Below are positions 339 through 45,232 of a DNA stretch of 64,000 bases, in pieces. A program made the position numbers and the translations under genes. Each line of letters opens with the position of its first letter. The first letter of the stretch is position 1. The notes under the pieces are model-generated. The model searched no databases. It saw only the letters and a program-made list of their open reading frames with translations, and was not told the DNA's origin. The DNA is from an uncultured Nitrososphaerota archaeon. Lineage in GTDB: Archaea; Thermoproteota; Methanomethylicia; Nezhaarchaeales; B40-G2. The stretch spans positions 23,783 through 87,782 of the forward strand of contig CAZVDL010000003.1 of the NCBI GenBank assembly GCA_964626365.1, given 5' to 3'.

Positions 339-1072
339 AAGAAGGTGGTTAACGAGAGCTGACCCTTAACCTCAAGAGGCTGAGGAGGTAGGGTGAAGGT
401 GACTATTGTTTTAGCGGCGGGAAGCGATACGTTTAGTACAAGCGTTGAGCCGATGTTAACCCTGAGGACACGGCCCTTATGTACGTGGCCGTGGACAGCC
501 ACGGTCACCGAGCTATCTTTAATCAGCTCTCCCATTTTAGAGCAGCCTAGTTGAGGCCATATCTTAGGGTCTTCGCCTTCGAGGGTCTCCTTACACAGAG
601 CATAGTGAGAGAATAGAATAGTGTAGTCGCACTTTAACCCCTGAATAAGCCTACCTATCTTCGACAGCCTCTCGTTGTAGATAGCCCTGATGTTAGGGAT
701 GTTCTTGAGCTGCCACGAAGTAGGCTGATCTAAACACCCTCTTGTGCCGATTAGGCCTATCTTATAACCCTTTATCTCAACGATCGTGGCTTCGTCATCG
801 AGCCACTTAATTAGGCCTCCCGATAGACTCATTAGTTTGGGTTTTACCTCATCGAACTCTTCATTGCCGAAGCAAGCAAAGATAGGGCCGGAGTAATGCT
901 CTTTGATGACCCCTAACACCTCGTTTAAACCCTCCACTCTACCCCTATAGATAATGTCCCCCGCCAAGATTAGTAAGTCGGCCTCCTTTAGAACCTGAGA
1001 AGAGGACTTAAGGAGGTCAAGGTTCTTGGGGCTATGTATATCGGCCGTCGCTGCCACCTTGATGCCGCTCAA
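335..1072 (-). CDS. calcineurin-like metallophosphoesterase
   Basis: 245 aa with GDIIYRG ... GHVHKG metal-binding motifs typical of the metallophosphoesterase superfamily. Confidence 0.55.
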   Translation of the reverse strand: MSGIKVAATADIHSPKNLDLLKSSSQVLKEADLLILAGDIIYRGRVEGLNEVLGVIKEHYSGPIFACFGNEEFDEVKPKLMSLSGGLIKWLDDEATIVEIKGYKIGLIGTRGCLDQPTSWQLKNIPNIRAIYNERLSKIGRLIQGLKCDYTILFSHYALCKETLEGEDPKIWPQLGCSKMGELIKDSSVTVAVHGHVHKGRVLRVNIGSTLVLNVSLPAAKTIVTFTLPPQPLEVKGQLSLTTFF

Positions 1073-1239
1073 CGCCCCTCAAGGTTAAGAGGAGAAGAGA
1101 GCTAAAGTTTTTTCTTAGTGCAGCTAGGCTTACCAGTGGGCGGATGAGGAAACGATGGTCTTAGGAGCGTGTCGATGACGGCGATGGGCGGCCTGACGCC
1201 CATGTACCTAAGTAGGAGGATGCCATTGAGGCGTGATAG

Positions 1240-1947
1240 ATGAGAAGACTGGGCATCATAGGGGGGACCGGCAGAGAGGGCGGAGCAATAGCTACGAGGT
1301 ATGCTAAAGTTGGCTGGCTCGTCTACGTGGGCTCAAGAGACCTCAAAAGAGCTCAACTAGCAGTTAACAGGATGAAGAGCTCCTTAAAGGACTTTAAAGG
1401 AGACTTAATAGGCTGTTCGAATCAGGAAGCCGCCGAGTATGGTGAAGCAGTCTTCTTAACAGTCCCCTACATAGGCTTAAAGCAGGTGTTAGACCAGGTC
1501 TCAACGTGGCTAAATGGGAAGCTCGTCGTGGACGTAGTTGTGCCTAACGTCATGAGGACGAACTACTTGATCGGTGAGGAGCTATTAGAGGTTTATAGAC
1601 AGCACTTCGGCGTCGGGAAAATACCATCAGTGACTGAGGAGATATACATGTACCTTAATAGCGTCCATAAAATTAAACCTAGAGTTGTGGCGGCTTTAAA
1701 GACGGTCTCGTTTAAGTTGATAGCTGACCTATCGACACCTTTTAGACAGACCATCTTGATATGGGGGTTTAACTCAGAGGATGTACATCAACTTAGATCG
1801 CTTTTAAAAGAGGGGTTTCCTGAAGCTGAGCTGCTAGAGGTACCGCAGATATATTGGAGCTGTATTGAGGGGGTCTGTGAATTCATAAGGCATATGTCTA
1901 TACAGGGTGTCAGGATAGACGCGTTAAGCTTCACTTATGGAGGATAA
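1240..1947 (+). CDS. NADPH-dependent F420 reductase-like NAD(P)-binding oxidoreductase (NpdG family)
   Basis: N-terminal Rossmann motif LGIIGGTGREGGAIATRYAKVGWLVYVGSR resembling the Fno/NpdG family. Confidence 0.5.
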   Translation: MRRLGIIGGTGREGGAIATRYAKVGWLVYVGSRDLKRAQLAVNRMKSSLKDFKGDLIGCSNQEAAEYGEAVFLTVPYIGLKQVLDQVSTWLNGKLVVDVVVPNVMRTNYLIGEELLEVYRQHFGVGKIPSVTEEIYMYLNSVHKIKPRVVAALKTVSFKLIADLSTPFRQTILIWGFNSEDVHQLRSLLKEGFPEAELLEVPQIYWSCIEGVCEFIRHMSIQGVRIDALSFTYGG

Positions 1948-2172
1948 ATCCTCTAACACCTCGTTAAGCGCCTCTACCCATCGATCCTCAGCCGCCCATG
2001 GATAGAGGCGCTTAAGCCTTCTATAATGTAGAGGGGAATCCTCAACCAGAATCCTCAATAGCCTAGCTATGAGCTTCCGTCCCTCGGAGTTTAAGGAGCC
2101 TCTCGAGAAGTAGGCCTCTCTGTTCGTTAAAGCCTCCTTTATTAAGGAGAGAGCCTCTATAGGTCTACGCAT
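1924..2172 (-). CDS. hypothetical small protein
   Basis: 82-aa ORF convergent with the preceding gene; no recognisable motif. Confidence 0.2.
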   Translation of the reverse strand: MRRPIEALSLIKEALTNREAYFSRGSLNSEGRKLIARLLRILVEDSPLHYRRLKRLYPWAAEDRWVEALNEVLEDLSSISEA

Positions 2173-2204
2173 CCCCTACTTTAAGCGCGGAGAGGGCTTT
2201 AAGG

Positions 2205-2885
2205 TTGCCTAGAAAGGTGGCTGCGTTATTTACGGGTGGTAAGGACTCGACGAGGGCTCTGGAAATAGCCCTTAAGCAAGGGCTTAAGGTCGAGTACCTA
2301 GTTACCATGGTACCTAGGAGAGAGGAGTCTTGGATGTATCATAGTGTTGGGTTAAACGTGGTGGAGCTGCTCTCTGACGCTATAGGGATACCCTTAGTGA
2401 AGGCGGAGACTGAGGGGGTTAAAGAGGAGGAGGTAGAGGACCTTAAAAGGGCACTTGAAGCGTTGAAGATCGAAGGGGTGGTCTGCGGAGCAATAGCTAG
2501 TAAGTATCAGAGAGATAGAGTGGCTAGGGTTTGTAGCGAGCTGGGCCTAGACCTATACACCCCTCTATGGGGGGTAGATGAGGAGAGATACCTAGAGGAG
2601 CTGTTGAGGGATGGTTACGAAATAATGGTGGTCTCGGTTTCAGCTTTGGGACTAAATGAAAAATGGCTTGGCAGGGTGCTCGATCATGAAGCCTTGGAGG
2701 AGCTTAAAAAGCTGAAAGCTAAGCTGGGCATAAACCTGTCGTTGGAGGGAGGAGAGGCTGAGACCCTAGTGCTTAATAGCCCCATTCACCGTAAGAGGCT
2801 GGTTATAGTGGAGGCTGAGAAGATATGGGACGGTAGAAGCGGCGTCCTAAGGATTAAAAAGGCGGAGCTTAGGGATAAACCATGA
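2205..2885 (+). CDS. Dph6-like ATP-binding protein (diphthine-ammonia ligase, MJ0570 family)
   Basis: AALFTGGKDS PP-loop at the N-terminus and a length of about 225 aa, typical of the archaeal DUF71/Dph6 family. Confidence 0.6.
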   Translation: MPRKVAALFTGGKDSTRALEIALKQGLKVEYLVTMVPRREESWMYHSVGLNVVELLSDAIGIPLVKAETEGVKEEEVEDLKRALEALKIEGVVCGAIASKYQRDRVARVCSELGLDLYTPLWGVDEERYLEELLRDGYEIMVVSVSALGLNEKWLGRVLDHEALEELKKLKAKLGINLSLEGGEAETLVLNSPIHRKRLVIVEAEKIWDGRSGVLRIKKAELRDKP

Positions 2886-2906
2886 CGAGCTGACAGGTGG
2901 TACCTC

Positions 2907-3917
2907 TTGCCTTTAACCGTGGTCGTAGGAGGCTTCTTTGGAGACGAGGGCAAGGGCAAGATAATCTCCTACCTCGCTGTTAAGGACAAGATAGACCTCG
3001 CTGTCAGGGTGGGCTCAGTTAACGCAGGGCACACAGTGATACTTGAGGATGGTAGAACCGTTAAGCTGAGAATGGTGTCGACCGCCTTCACGAATAGGAG
3101 CTGTAGGTTGCTAATAGGGGCTGGAGCCAACGTTAACCCCAAGATCTTCCTAAGCGAGGTGGAGCTCACCAATACCAAGGATAGGGTGGGCGTAGATTAT
3201 CAGTGCTCCATCATAGAGGAACATCACATTGAGCGCGATAGGAAGGACGCCCACTTAGCGGGTAAGGTTCAGACCACCGGCCAAGGCGTAGGGCCGGCCA
3301 TAGAGGACAGAGTTAAAAGGATAGCTAAGCTGGCTAGGGATGTTAAGGAGCTTGAACCCTTCCTCACTGACGTAGCTGCTGAGGTGGATGAAGCCCTTAG
3401 GGCAGGTAAAAACGTCCTGTTAGAGGGAACTCAAGGATGCTTTCTGTCACTATACCACGGCACCTACCCGTACGTCACAGCGAGAGACACGACAGCCGCT
3501 GCAGTGTGTAGCGAAGTCGGGGTTGGGCCGACGAGGGTTAACGACGTGCTGGTGGTGTTTAAGGCCTACGTGACTAGGGTGGGAGGAGGACCTTTGCCAG
3601 GTGAGCTGCCAGAGGATGAAGCTGAGCGAAGAGGATGGAGCGAGATAGCGACGGTTACAGGTAGGAAGAGAAGGGCTGCGCCGTTTAACTTCGACCTCGC
3701 TAGGAGGGCTATCATGCTTAATGGGGCGACGCAGATAGCCATAACTAAGCTGGACGTCCTCTTCCCTGAAGTTAAGGGGGCTCGAGGTGTAAAGGAGCTA
3801 AGCCGGGAGGCTTTAAAGTTCATAGAGGACGTGGAGGGTAAGCTTGGGGTTAAGGTGGCTTTAATCGGTACGGGGCCCAGCATAATGGACATTGTGGACC
3901 TTAGAGAGGAGGGTTAA
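2907..3917 (+). CDS. purA: adenylosuccinate synthetase
   Basis: GDEGKGK P-loop, GHTV and TTGQGVGP motifs; 336 aa matches the short archaeal form. Confidence 0.85.
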   Translation: MPLTVVVGGFFGDEGKGKIISYLAVKDKIDLAVRVGSVNAGHTVILEDGRTVKLRMVSTAFTNRSCRLLIGAGANVNPKIFLSEVELTNTKDRVGVDYQCSIIEEHHIERDRKDAHLAGKVQTTGQGVGPAIEDRVKRIAKLARDVKELEPFLTDVAAEVDEALRAGKNVLLEGTQGCFLSLYHGTYPYVTARDTTAAAVCSEVGVGPTRVNDVLVVFKAYVTRVGGGPLPGELPEDEAERRGWSEIATVTGRKRRAAPFNFDLARRAIMLNGATQIAITKLDVLFPEVKGARGVKELSREALKFIEDVEGKLGVKVALIGTGPSIMDIVDLREEG

Positions 3918-10985: not shown

Positions 10986-11789
10986 TCAAGTCGAGGTCAC
11001 GGGTACTTTCCTACCTGAGGCATCCCTAACGTAAGACCCGAGCTCCTTTATCTTAACTAGCTCAGACAACTTAAACACAGGTCCTTCAAGACACACCCTT
11101 AGGCCGTTAATCGAACATGACCCACAGAGTCCAACGCCGCACTTAATGTACCTTTCAAGGCTCGCCTCTAGGTCAACCCCGTGTTTAAGAGCCACCTCCA
11201 TACACTTCACTATCATGGGCTCGGGGCCGCACACGTAGACTTTATCGGCCTTCGACTTGCTCAACGCCTCGTCGAGGGCCTCGTGAGCTAGGCCCTTAAA
11301 GCCCTCGGTGCCGTCATCGGTTGCAACCAATAACTTATCGGCTATACGCGCTAGTCTTTCCTTGAATATGAGCTCCTTAGCTGTGGTGGCCGCTATGATG
11401 ACCTCAACGTGGGAGCCGAGGCTCTTCAACTCCTCAGCTAAGGGAGCTAGAGGAGCTATTCCTACGCCGCCCCCCACTAAGACCGCCTTCAGCTTACTTA
11501 CCGTGAATCCCCTACCGTAGGGGCCTCTTACACCAATGAAGGAGTTTAACGGTAGCTTAAGCAGCTGGTTCGTTGTCTCGCCTACTCCCTTCACGGTGAA
11601 ACCTATTAGCCTAGGAGGCTTTATGACCGAGAGGCTCATAGGCACCTCCTCTGCGCTGGGCAGCCACACCATAATGAAGTTGCCAGGCCTAGCCTTTACG
11701 GCTATTTTTGGACACTCTAAGATTAAGGTCTTGACGTTACGGGCTTCGTCCTTAGCGTCGACTAGCTTAGCGACATGCATACCTAGCAC
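10986..11789 (-). CDS. pyrK: dihydroorotate dehydrogenase electron-transfer subunit
   Basis: FAD/NAD-binding fold plus C-terminal CGVGLCGSC 2Fe-2S motif; directly precedes pyrD. Confidence 0.85.
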   Translation of the reverse strand: MLGMHVAKLVDAKDEARNVKTLILECPKIAVKARPGNFIMVWLPSAEEVPMSLSVIKPPRLIGFTVKGVGETTNQLLKLPLNSFIGVRGPYGRGFTVSKLKAVLVGGGVGIAPLAPLAEELKSLGSHVEVIIAATTAKELIFKERLARIADKLLVATDDGTEGFKGLAHEALDEALSKSKADKVYVCGPEPMIVKCMEVALKHGVDLEASLERYIKCGVGLCGSCSINGLRVCLEGPVFKLSELVKIKELGSYVRDASGRKVPVTST

Positions 11790-12688
11790 CTGTGGGCATA
11801 GCCTATCAATTCCTTAATCGAGGAGAAGCCGTGAAGTTTTAGGTACCCTTCAACACCGTTAATTAGGCGTCTAAAGAGGTCAAAGCCCTCCTTTGCCAGC
11901 GCTGAGCCTACCTGGATAGCTGAGGCCCCAGCTAAGATAAACTCCAAGGCGTCCCTGTAGTCGCTGATGCCGCCGACACCGATGATCGGTATCTCCACTG
12001 CTTCATGTAGCTCATAGACGCATCTAACGGCTATAGGTTTAATGGCTGGCCCGGAGAGACCCCCAAATTTATTGGAGAGAACTGGGCGCTTTAAGTCTAC
12101 GTCTATGTACATGGCCTTTATGGTGTTTATGGCCGTAACCCCGTCACCCCCCGCTTTCTCGACTGCTTTAGCCACTTCCACGATACTAGGAGACTCAGCG
12201 GATAGCTTAGCGAAGACAGGGATTGATACTGAGTGCTTGACTCTGGCGATTACGTCATAGGCTAGTTTAGGGTCTTGGGAGTAAGACGTGAGCCCTCCGG
12301 CATGAGGGCAGGATAGATTTAGTTCGATGGCATCGGCGCCTATCTCCTCGGCCTTAAAGCTGGCCCTGGCGAACTCCTCTACCGTTGAGCCAAAGACGCT
12401 CACTATCACCGGCACGCCTACATCCTTTACTTCACGTAGCTCCTCCCGAAACGACTCCAATCCTGGGTTGGCTAGGCCTATAGCGTTTAGATACCCGTAG
12501 GGTAGCTCTACTACCACGGGGTTAGGGTACCCTTCTCTTGGATCTAAGCTCAACGACTTGGTTACGACCGCGCCCGCTCCAGCCATAGCTATCCTCTTAA
12601 GTAAGCCCCCTGTCGTGGATAAGACACCCGAGGCGTTCATGAACGGGTTGCTTAGCTTAAGCGAGGAGATCTCAGTCTCCAAGTTCAA
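11783..12688 (-). CDS. pyrD: dihydroorotate dehydrogenase (class 1B) catalytic subunit
   Basis: TIM-barrel DHODH motifs (NASGVL, VTKS, GGIS); overlaps pyrK. Confidence 0.9.
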   Translation of the reverse strand: MNLETEISSLKLSNPFMNASGVLSTTGGLLKRIAMAGAGAVVTKSLSLDPREGYPNPVVVELPYGYLNAIGLANPGLESFREELREVKDVGVPVIVSVFGSTVEEFARASFKAEEIGADAIELNLSCPHAGGLTSYSQDPKLAYDVIARVKHSVSIPVFAKLSAESPSIVEVAKAVEKAGGDGVTAINTIKAMYIDVDLKRPVLSNKFGGLSGPAIKPIAVRCVYELHEAVEIPIIGVGGISDYRDALEFILAGASAIQVGSALAKEGFDLFRRLINGVEGYLKLHGFSSIKELIGYAHRC

Positions 12689-13311
12689 AGACAGAGAGGA
12701 CCCCCTCCCGAACGTTAGAGGTTGAATACCTATAAAGTCTGAGGCCGGATAAGGAGAGAAACGATGGCTTCGCGAGAGGATAAAAGAGGAGGTAGGTTCG
12801 CGTTAGTTCTTCACTGTTTACTAAACCAGAACGCCCTAGAGCCTGGCTACGCCATGTACAGCGCTGCTGTAGAACCTGTCGTAAATTATCTGATCAAGCA
12901 GGGAGGGCGTAGGCATCGTGCAGTACCCGTGCCCTGAATCTTACTGTGAAGGTTAGAGGAGGCCTGCCTTACCAGGCGAAGAGGGAAAAGAGAAGGTATA
13001 GGGTACCTAGCATGGTCAGGTGTTATAGGAGGTTAGCTAGAGAGGTCTGTGACTTAATAGAGGAGCTCGTGAAGGGGGTCTAGGTTTACGTGTATTATTG
13101 GGGGGTCTCGTAGCCCTACCTGCGGCGTAACGGAGGATGGTCGACCTTTTGGAGTATTCCTCGAGGGACTCGTGGAGGAATTAGGAGACGTGGAATCGAG
13201 GTGCCTCCGCTAATAAGGACATCGAGAGACCCTAATACCAAGGAGATATTGGTAGACGAGGTGTTGACTAAGTTGAGAAGAGTAATTGAAGAAACCTAAA
13301 GCTCAATCAGT

Positions 13312-13320
13312 TTTTTTAGT
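13312..13320 (+). terminator. T-tract (T7) putative archaeal terminator of a plus-strand transcript
   Basis: cagtttttttagtg at the 3' side of the ORF-free 12689-13445 interval. Confidence 0.3.
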
Positions 13321-13445
13321 GCGCACGAGACGCCATGCCCCTTAAACCCGCCTTACTAAATGGTAATTATACGTGGCCGAGTTAGTCGGGCTTGTTTTCA
13401 TTCCCTTAATAATAGCAATAGAGGGGTCAGCTCGTCGCGAGCACA

Positions 13446-13814
13446 TCATTGATTGCTCTCTACAGCCTGGGGCATGGCTTCTTCATCCCCTCGACTAAAT
13501 GGTTTTGACTCTTTAAGTGCTTTTCGGAGCTTCTTTAGAGTACCACTAACCCTCTCCACGTGGAGGAGACAGGAAGACCCCTCAGCCTCTTTGACGGCCG
13601 CTGCTGCCGCTCTCACCATCCATACTGACTTATGGCTACATTTTAAGATCAGCTTGCCTGGAAGAACCTCAATTAGCAGTAAGCCCGCCTGTGATAAACC
13701 GAATTCACCTAGTAGGCGTCTAAGAGCTTCTCTTAGTTCACGCCAAGCTTTATGAGGGTCTACGTCGCCATGTATACATATTGACAAGTATCTAGTCCTC
13801 TCGAGCTTAACCAC
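13446..13814 (-). CDS. rnp2: RNase P protein component 2 (Pop5)
   Basis: 122 aa; RYLSICIHG, LILKCSHKSV and VERVSGTLKKLRKAL align with the archaeal Pop5 pattern (RYIAF, VRCDR, VLGVSGTIKRLKRK). Confidence 0.7.
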   Translation of the reverse strand: MVKLERTRYLSICIHGDVDPHKAWRELREALRRLLGEFGLSQAGLLLIEVLPGKLILKCSHKSVWMVRAAAAAVKEAEGSSCLLHVERVSGTLKKLRKALKESKPFSRGDEEAMPQAVESNQ

Positions 13815-14508
13815 TTTTAGGCTCCACCACCCTAACTCCTGGCATTACATAGTTTGGACTCAGCTTAGACCTGTTTAAGTCTAGCCTATGTTTAGGGACC
13901 TCCGATAGCATCCTTCTAGCCTCCTCTTCATCCATAGTTATGAGCGCTGCTAACGCTGCTAAATCCCTTGGGGCTCTCATATGCATTAGCTCTTCAGCGC
14001 CACTAGCAAAGACTACATTCAAACCTCTTTTTTTGGCTAGTTCGTAGGCCTTACGGTAATGTCTTAGGAGGGGAGAGCAGCAGCCCCTTATTATTAGCGG
14101 GGCTAGGTCCATCTCTAAGATGACACCCGAGCTCCTCATTAAGCTAGCGACACCTTCATCGAACACCTTAACCCTTGGGTCGGGTTGAAGCACCAGGAAA
14201 TCTACCCTTGAGTCCCTGGCAGCTACCCTAGCCACCTCTATCGTGAGGGGGACGACACCTACAAACTCCACCTTCCTACGGTTCTTCGTTAATGTTTGCT
14301 TCAGCTTAGAGGAGGATTCAACGTGTACATCTAAGCGGATGGCTACATCAATCTTTAACTTACGCCCCTCATTCGCTAGTTCCTTGGCCAGGTTTAAGTT
14401 CAGCTCATCAACAGCTAAGGCTACTCCTCTCCACTTTAAATGGCGAGCTAAGGATAAAGCCTCAGAGGTGAGTACACGCAGTCTAGCGTCTAGGAAGAAC
14501 TTAGACAT
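13807..14508 (-). CDS. rnp3: RNase P protein component 3 (Rpp30)
   Basis: 233-aa TIM-barrel-like protein immediately upstream of and overlapping pop5, the conserved rnp3-rnp2 pair. Confidence 0.5.
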   Translation of the reverse strand: MSKFFLDARLRVLTSEALSLARHLKWRGVALAVDELNLNLAKELANEGRKLKIDVAIRLDVHVESSSKLKQTLTKNRRKVEFVGVVPLTIEVARVAARDSRVDFLVLQPDPRVKVFDEGVASLMRSSGVILEMDLAPLIIRGCCSPLLRHYRKAYELAKKRGLNVVFASGAEELMHMRAPRDLAALAALITMDEEEARRMLSEVPKHRLDLNRSKLSPNYVMPGVRVVEPKSG

Positions 14509-35082: not shown

Positions 35083-35182
35083 GCCGGGGTGGCCGAGTGG
35101 CCTAAGGCGCCAGCCTGGAGCTACTCGACGGAGAGCTGGTGCCCCTTAACGGGGCGCGTGGGTTCAAATCCCACCCCCGGCG
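35083..35182 (+). tRNA. tRNA-Ser(GGA) with a 13-nt canonical (37/38) intron at 35121-35133
   Basis: acceptor GCCGGGG/CCCCGGC, anticodon stem CCAGC/GCTGG, loop CUGGAG + intron + A, long variable arm GCCCCTTAACGGGGCGC, T-arm GTGGGTTCAAATCCCAC. Confidence 0.85.
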
Positions 35183-40648: not shown

Positions 40649-40738
40649 GCGGCCGTCGTCTAGCCTGGTCTAGGACCCTAGCCTCCCGACCAGCAGGGGA
40701 GCCAGCTAGTGGCCCGGGTTCAAATCCCGGCGGCCGCA
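40649..40738 (+). tRNA. tRNA-Gly(CCC) with a 15-nt canonical BHB intron at 40689-40703
   Basis: acceptor GCGGCCG/CGGCCGC, D-stem GTCT/GGAC, anticodon stem CTAGC/GCTAG, loop CUCCCG + intron + A; central helix CTCC/GGAG with bulges CG^A and CC^A; T-arm CCGGGTTCAAATCCCGG. Confidence 0.7.
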
Positions 40739-45143: not shown

Positions 45144-45232
45144 TGGGCCGGCCCGGACTCGAACCGGGGACCCGCCGCGCGTCAGGCGGCGTTCAGGCTG
45201 CTTAGTATCCTAGCCAACTAGACGACCGGCCC
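45144..45232 (-). tRNA. tRNA-Val(GAC) with a putative 16-nt non-canonical intron near the D-stem/anticodon-stem junction
   Basis: The reverse complement has acceptor GGGCCGG/CCGGCCC, a perfect anticodon arm GCCGC-CTGACGC-GCGGC and T-arm CCCGGTTCGAGTCCGGG. An extra ...TACTAAGCAGCCTGAA... segment separates the D-arm from the anticodon stem. Confidence 0.55.

Follow-up and report, generated by a model that had tools for sequence, protein, structure and literature searches.

The 757-bp interval 12689-13445 of the window (the whole stretch of DNA analysed, 64,000 nt) is very probably a decayed gene for a TudS-related desulfidase, with a conserved box C/D sRNA candidate lying on the opposite strand at its right edge. 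For annotation, an apparently 'empty' interval thus becomes an unannotated pseudogene, and not the site of a missing RNase P or SRP RNA. A pseudogene and an sRNA are ordinary findings that leave current understanding unchanged. The locus is a clean small case of parallel gene decay, with lesions that are polymorphic among the strains of a second lineage.

The ORF listing contains no reading frame of at least 60 aa on either strand of the interval, as the original prediction had stated. The longest ORFs are 57 aa (12764-12937), 45 aa (12946-13083) and 41 aa; the first of these had been given as 58 aa, so that the ORF stands and its length is corrected. The flanks had also been named correctly as pyrD and RNase P protein genes, which carry Pfam domains PF01180, PF01900 and PF01876 (labels taken from gene-called copies of the same contig). 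Across the 8.9-kb neighbourhood the gaps between called genes are 67, 2, 45, -1, -8, -8, 758, 2, 48, 145 and 6 bp; the 758-bp gap is exceptional for the locus, all other gaps being at most 145 bp. Four other assemblies of this organism (L017-L020) have no gene called in the interval, and in a fifth (L021) a 45-aa fragment is the sole call in it. GC skew is positive exactly over 12750-13350, which fits a plus-strand coding sequence amid minus-strand genes. The features of the locus are collected in the table.

Features of the pyrD-Rpp14 interval and its flanks (window positions unless a relative's locus is named)
Feature	Position	Strand	Basis
pyrD (dihydroorotate dehydrogenase catalytic subunit), intact, left flank	11783..12688	-	301-aa ORF; PF01180 in gene-called contig copies
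Divergent spacer between pyrD and remnant	12689..12763	.	sequence read directly
TudS-related (CD3072-family-like) putative [4Fe-4S] desulfidase pseudogene, ~177 codons	12764..13299	+	three-frame translations, profile match
Lesion 1: 4-nt insertion (GGGC) relative to L001, frame 1 to 2	12905..12908	+	DNA alignment with L001/L007
Lesion 2: in-frame TAG; TGG (Trp) in L001, L007 and L030	12954..12956	+	DNA alignment
Lesion 3: 1-nt insertion in GGGAAAAGAGA, frame 2 to 3	12985..12993	+	alignment with L001
Lesion 4: 1-nt insertion in or near a G5 run, frame 3 to 1	13075..13084	+	alignment with L001
Lesion 5: 1-nt deletion, frame 1 to 3	13181..13184	+	alignment with L001
T7 tract, starting 12 nt past the remnant's TAA	13311..13317	+	sequence read
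Spacer with no recognisable feature	13318..13422	.	no Rfam match
Box C/D sRNA candidate, 68 nt	13423..13490	-	conservation, C/D/C'/D' boxes, fixed synteny
Rpp14/Pop5 RNase P protein gene, intact, right flank	13446..13814	-	122-aa ORF; PF01900 (RNase_P_Rpp14)
Rpp30 gene, beyond Rpp14/Pop5	13807-14508		PF01876 (RNase_P_p30)
sRNA candidate copy (copies 64-69 nt)	L001 5391-5459
sRNA candidate copy	L030 2393-2461
sRNA candidate copy	L023 2867-2930
sRNA candidate copy	L025 2867-2930
sRNA candidate copy	L027 2888-2954
sRNA candidate copy	L028 2885-2951

Translation of 12764-13310 in three frames resolves the plus-strand remnant into five consecutive pieces. The first (12764-12904, frame 1) reads MASRED...RFALVLHCLLNQN...YLIKQG, the second (12909-12992, frame 2) reads VGIVQYPCPESYCEG-TAG-RRPALPGEEGKE, the third (12994-13080, frame 3) reads RYRVPSMVRCYRRLAREVCDLIEELVKGV, the fourth (13082-13183, frame 1) reads RFTCIIGGSRSPTCGVTEDGRPFGVFLEGLVEEL and the last (13183-13296, frame 3) reads RRRGIEVPPLIRTSRDPNTKEILVDEVLTKLRRVIEET-TAA, its stop codon occupying 13297-13299. 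When stitched into a single protein of 177 aa, the pieces match NCBIfam profile NF045597.1, the CD3072 family TudS-related putative desulfidase, with an E-value of 1.3e-23 and a score of 83.4 bits, the alignment spanning 137 of the 148 profile positions (4-140); an earlier stitched version had matched at 1.4e-20. Scanned singly, three of the five pieces match the same profile in order, at positions 3-39, 37-54 and 93-133, and the 44-aa frame-3 ORF and the C-terminal piece give no match to it on their own. Such colinear matches across frames are the signature of a frameshifted gene.

The assignment to the family has to be worded with care. At 83.4 bits the repaired protein lies below the curated NF045597.1 cut-off of 130 bits, as does an intact homologue, P0001 (202 aa), which scores 104.8 bits (E 3e-30). 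P0001 is the single match to the stitched protein in a word-indexed homologue search and is distant from it (26% identity); it also resembles Pfam PF04463 (2-thiouracil desulfurase) weakly, at 20.6 bits against a gathering score of 34.7. A Pfam scan of the fragments and of the stitched protein returned nothing, with no PF04463 match at E-values up to 1, and a PDB sequence search with the stitched protein and P0001 found nothing relevant. With a score under the profile cut-off and no Pfam or PDB match, the remnant is described as 'related to' the family and not as a 'member of' it. The word-indexed search started from Rpp14 brought up no more than the cluster of Rpp14 itself. When the best piece, of 46 aa, was compared exhaustively with 1.84 billion representatives, it recovered only the fragment from the L001 lineage (see below) and spurious repeat proteins. 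No intact close orthologue that could serve as a lesion-free reference was found within the limits of this short query and of the word-indexed search, and the remnant looks like a representative of a distinct archaeal subfamily of which broken copies alone have been found.

TudS, a thiouracil and 4-thio-UMP desulfidase of the DUF523 family (PF04463; PDB 6Z96), holds its [4Fe-4S] cluster through three cysteine ligands, Cys10, Cys43 and Cys104, and catalysis is assisted by Glu45, Ser101 and Ser103 (PMC10611767). The conceptual translation of the remnant keeps the putative cluster-ligand motifs HC(17), PCPE and SRSPTCG, now located in frames 1, 2 and 1 with frameshifts between them; the equivalence of these ligands to those of TudS is judged from the spacing of the motifs and not from aligned structures. 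The remnant and TudS appear to have in common the three-Cys motif logic, a Glu two residues past the second Cys (C-P-E) and an S-P-x-C-G motif. They differ in that the remnant has Thr at the equivalent of Ser103 (SPTCG versus SPSCG) and in that the repaired protein matches neither PF04463 nor any PDB chain. As for the CD3072 family, the C-x-x-N, PCPE and SPTCG motifs are common to the remnant and P0001; the window copy is a pseudogene, scores 83 bits against 130 and is only 26% identical to that homologue. The ancestral product may be described as a putative [4Fe-4S] desulfidase, an enzymatic role read from the motifs and the profile match.

Five lesions separate the remnant from an open reading frame, and the single-frame orthologue in L001 pins each of them to a few bases. 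As the HC, PCPE and SPTCG motifs now lie in different frames, no functional protein is possible. The original prediction had offered, as one of two readings, a degraded, amber-interrupted small-protein gene. This was right about a degraded gene that contains a TAG, and it missed that the gene is TudS-related, about 177 codons long and broken by four frameshifting indels. Likewise, the two TAG codons that it noted in a run-on reading frame do exist (at 13081-13083 and ~13111-13113), but the frame is non-homologous there. Pyrrolysine or other recoding of TAG was considered for the in-frame stop and rejected, TAG being common as a stop codon in the window and here replacing a Trp codon.

All five lesions occur also in five other assemblies, which come from ENA (L017 and L020), NCBI (L018, GCA_003650875.1), Logan (L019, SRR6823442) and JGI (L021). 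Within the 757-bp interval the only variable sites among the assemblies are position 13000 (A/G) and the T tract, and elsewhere the strains are 99.9% identical. The identical lesions in five further assemblies mean that they are not sequencing errors. The two indels that fall within short homopolymers (A4 and G5) would suggest an intact gene misread in sequencing or assembly, but such errors would have to recur identically across different archives and assemblers, to spare the neighbouring genes on the same contigs, all of which are intact, and to account for lesions that are not of this type, one being a substitution (TAG) and another a 4-nt insertion; the probability left to this explanation is negligible.

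The gene might alternatively be alive, expressed through programmed frameshifting and stop recoding or as functional split peptides corresponding to the 57-aa and 45-aa ORFs. All motif residues are indeed still recognisable, and gene callers do call a 45-aa fragment in L021 and an 81-aa fragment in L030. Expression of the whole protein would, however, require three +1-type shifts, one -1 shift and read-through of a TAG within 177 codons, and none of the four shift sites, which are of mixed sign, carries a slippery X XXY YYZ heptamer. TAG acts as a normal stop in this DNA, where it terminates 18 of 51 long ORFs. Nor are the junctions conserved: the L001 lineage is in a single frame at these places and has other lesions, which differ between strains. 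Split peptides, for their part, would distribute the three putative cluster ligands over separate fragments. Continued function by any of these routes is barely credible, and the remnant is treated below as a dead gene.

Of the genomes in the species collection, the closest is a Candidatus Methanomethylicia MAG (L001), with a pyrD that is 69% identical. Its gene order is the same, and at the corresponding position it carries the same gene, which keeps to one frame between GRGEIKPGY... and the stop codon. Over 153 aa the conceptual protein of L001 shows 66.7% identity to that of the window, a value close to that of pyrD and above that of Rpp30 (53%). This copy too is broken, and in a different way. 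In L001, L007 and L030 alike the start codon is lost, the first Cys is lost (TGT>CGT) and there are two N-terminal stops; L001 alone has an extra CGA>TGA, and L007 and L030 have a 2-nt deletion. The 5' part of the gene and the promoter region are degraded in this lineage. No lesion is common to the window and the L001 lineage, so the two have decayed independently.

The substitution pattern records constraint before this decay. Differences between the window and L001 fall on the three codon positions in the ratio 44:28:80, with pN 0.233, pS 0.665 and omega ~0.17; for comparison, six intact neighbours have pN of 0.20-0.37, with synonymous sites saturated. Codon periodicity of this kind means that the sequence was neither a pseudogene nor an RNA gene in the common ancestor, and that selection acted on its protein during most of the period after the split. 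Together with the distinct lesions it points to a recent inactivation, separate in each of the two lineages.

A further group of relatives lacks the gene altogether. In L023/L024, L025/L026, L027 and L028, whose pyrD is 69-72% identical and some of which are labelled Nezhaarchaeota by NCBI, the adjacency of Rpp14 and pyrD is kept but the spacer is just 117-184 bp, with no remnant. These relatives group in a single clade that excludes the window and L001. Either the ancestor common to the window and L001 acquired the gene, or the other clade lost it outright. That four other related genomes lack it at this place indicates that the gene is dispensable and in the course of being lost clade-wide. 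A more distant Methanomethylicia MAG (L029, pyrD 58% identical) has divergent Nop5 and fibrillarin genes ahead of pyrD (1006-2924, minus strand), where the RNase P protein genes would otherwise stand; both encode C/D RNP proteins.

The second reading of the original prediction, a structured plus-strand non-coding RNA of about 550 nt, fares badly against these comparisons. Its authoring reader had seen no RNase P RNA or SRP RNA motifs by eye, and the Rfam covariance scan agrees: over the whole window at gathering thresholds it reports only three tRNAs, with neither RNase P nor SRP RNA. A permissive scan of 12500-13600 (E up to 10) returned only noise, with no RNase P, SRP, H/ACA or other family. 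The putative 559-nt plus-strand transcript folds no better than chance (minimum free energy z +1.32; 93 of 100 shuffles reach an equal or better fold), and its substitutions relative to the orthologue are those of a protein-coding sequence. An alignment of the interval to a frameshifted gene in relatives had been named in advance among the outcomes that would refute the prediction, and the interval does align with the orthologue in L001 and L007. A functional transcript of this length, possibly structured and either original or exapted from the dead gene, could draw on the persistence of the TATA-like element, the ATG context and the oligo-T, by which transcription may continue, and on a remnant that stays undeleted in two lineages. 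It would have to be reconciled with a fold indistinguishable from shuffled sequence, with the lack of any Rfam match even at E up to 10, with conservation that is codon-periodic and thus reflects protein and not RNA constraint, with the complete absence of the region in four related genomes and with the degraded 5' part and promoter region in the L001 lineage. Such an RNA is extremely improbable, and a decayed protein gene remains the preferred reading of the plus strand.

The only TATA-like element between the divergent starts is TATAAA at 12731-12736 (TTTATA on the other strand). It lies ~30 nt before the remnant's ATG, the usual archaeal TATA-to-start spacing, and we infer that it was the promoter of the former gene. 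It is also 43-48 nt upstream of the pyrD start, distances that are compatible with its serving both pyrD and the pseudogene; a GGGAGGGGG stretch precedes the TTG start of pyrD. At the other end, the T7 run that had been placed at 13312-13320 exists, its true position being 13311-13317, and is probably the oligo-T terminator of the former gene. The tract is polymorphic among strains (T7 in the window, T6CC in L017-L019, T6C in L021). As the TATA-like element and the T7 tract fit the promoter and terminator of the former gene, the remnant may still be transcribed.

The history that these observations suggest is a simple one. The gene would once have been transcribed divergently from pyrD, starting from this TATA-like element and ending at the oligo-T. 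It still worked in the ancestor from which the window and L001 lineages descend and during most of the period after they split; four frameshifting indels and a TGG>TAG substitution then accumulated in the lineage of the window, and the L001 lineage underwent a separate inactivation. In a bolder proposal, the intact TATA would still drive transcription of the dead gene, and two lineages would have retained the gene for the sake of its transcript or of transcription itself. If so, transcription might tune the divergent pyrD promoter through the common TATA element, or might run convergently toward the box C/D sRNA and the 3' end of Rpp14; this is very unlikely. In a milder variant, the parallel recent loss in two lineages and the absence of the gene from a third clade would mark a clade-wide change in thionucleotide recycling.

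The element at the right edge of the interval came to light when the short Rpp14-pyrD spacers of the relatives were compared, one block being kept in all of them. Read on the minus strand, it has the layout GGGG AUGAAGA(C) AGCCAUGCCCCAGGCUG UAGA(D') GAGCAAUCA AUGAUGU(C') GCUCGCGACGAG CUGA(D) CCCC, with spacers in the window of 17 nt between C and D', 9 nt between D' and C' and 12 nt between C' and D (GCUCGCGACGAG). It is found in the same place downstream of Rpp14 in L001, L007, L030, L021, L023, L025, L027 and L028. In a comparison of 7 loci, 48 of the 68 positions never change, and the flanks cannot be aligned. In the window it overlaps the last 15 codons (45 nt, 13446-13490) of the Rpp14/Pop5 ORF, which runs into the sRNA and ends ...GDEEAMPQAVESNQ. 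In the Nezhaarchaeota-like relatives (L023-L028) the sRNA begins ~50 nt downstream of the Rpp14 stop, so the C-terminal tail of the window's protein may be an incidental extension. On its other side, the featureless spacer that separates the T tract from the sRNA in the window is missing from the L001 lineage, where the stop codon of the remnant abuts the sRNA. The proposal of a non-coding RNA near the RNase P genes is thereby borne out by accident, in the form of a candidate (13490-13423) on the strand opposite to the one proposed.

The boxes argue for a box C/D sRNA, and the element is put forward as a candidate for a real one. A C box, a D box and a short terminal stem are present, and the C box is the canonical AUGAUGA in L027. 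Most lineages have AUGAAGA or AUGACGA, off consensus, and four have CAGA as the D box. The GA dinucleotides of the boxes are invariant, and only the pair formed by C-box position 5 and D-box position 2 varies, the tolerant position of a k-turn. D' can be read as YAGA and C' as AUGAUGU, with a loop between them whose length varies. In all 7 sequences the C'-D guide measures exactly 12 nt, and the C-D' spacer, at 17-18 nt, is longer than the canonical ~12. The terminal GGGG/CCCC stem never varies and so offers no covariation.

In its size of ~68 nt, its C/D and putative D'/C' boxes, its GGGG/CCCC ends, its 12-nt C'-D guide and its position at or just past the 3' end of a protein gene, the element resembles known archaeal box C/D sRNAs such as snoPyro_CD (RF00095) and the Sulfolobus sR families. 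It differs from them in its deviant C and D boxes, in the long C-D' spacer and in its sub-threshold Rfam scores (15-16 against 45 bits). No Rfam C/D family matches at threshold: against the gathering score of 45, snoPyro_CD reaches 15.1 bits for the window copy and 15.8 bits for that of L027, where C/D families make up 11 of the 14 weak Rfam matches. A covariance model built from the alignment (R1) matches only the syntenic spot, with no further copies. The guide has no matching target in the window, its tRNAs included, and with E. coli rRNA as a proxy only candidates with 2 mismatches were obtained. By analogy, the sRNA would presumably guide 2'-O-methylation together with fibrillarin, Nop5 and L7Ae. 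It would add one guide RNA to the Methanomethylicia/Nezhaarchaeota-like clade, for which, to our knowledge, there is almost no ncRNA annotation.

Elsewhere in the window, the tRNA calls differ between programs. A 100-nt tRNA at 35083-35182 (plus strand) is reported by Rfam and missed by ARAGORN, an 89-nt tRNA-Leu(taa) at 45144-45232 (minus strand) is reported by ARAGORN and unlisted by Rfam, and a 90-nt tRNA at 40649-40738 (plus strand) is assigned no definite anticodon by ARAGORN. The lengths of these three calls suggest intron-containing archaeal tRNAs.
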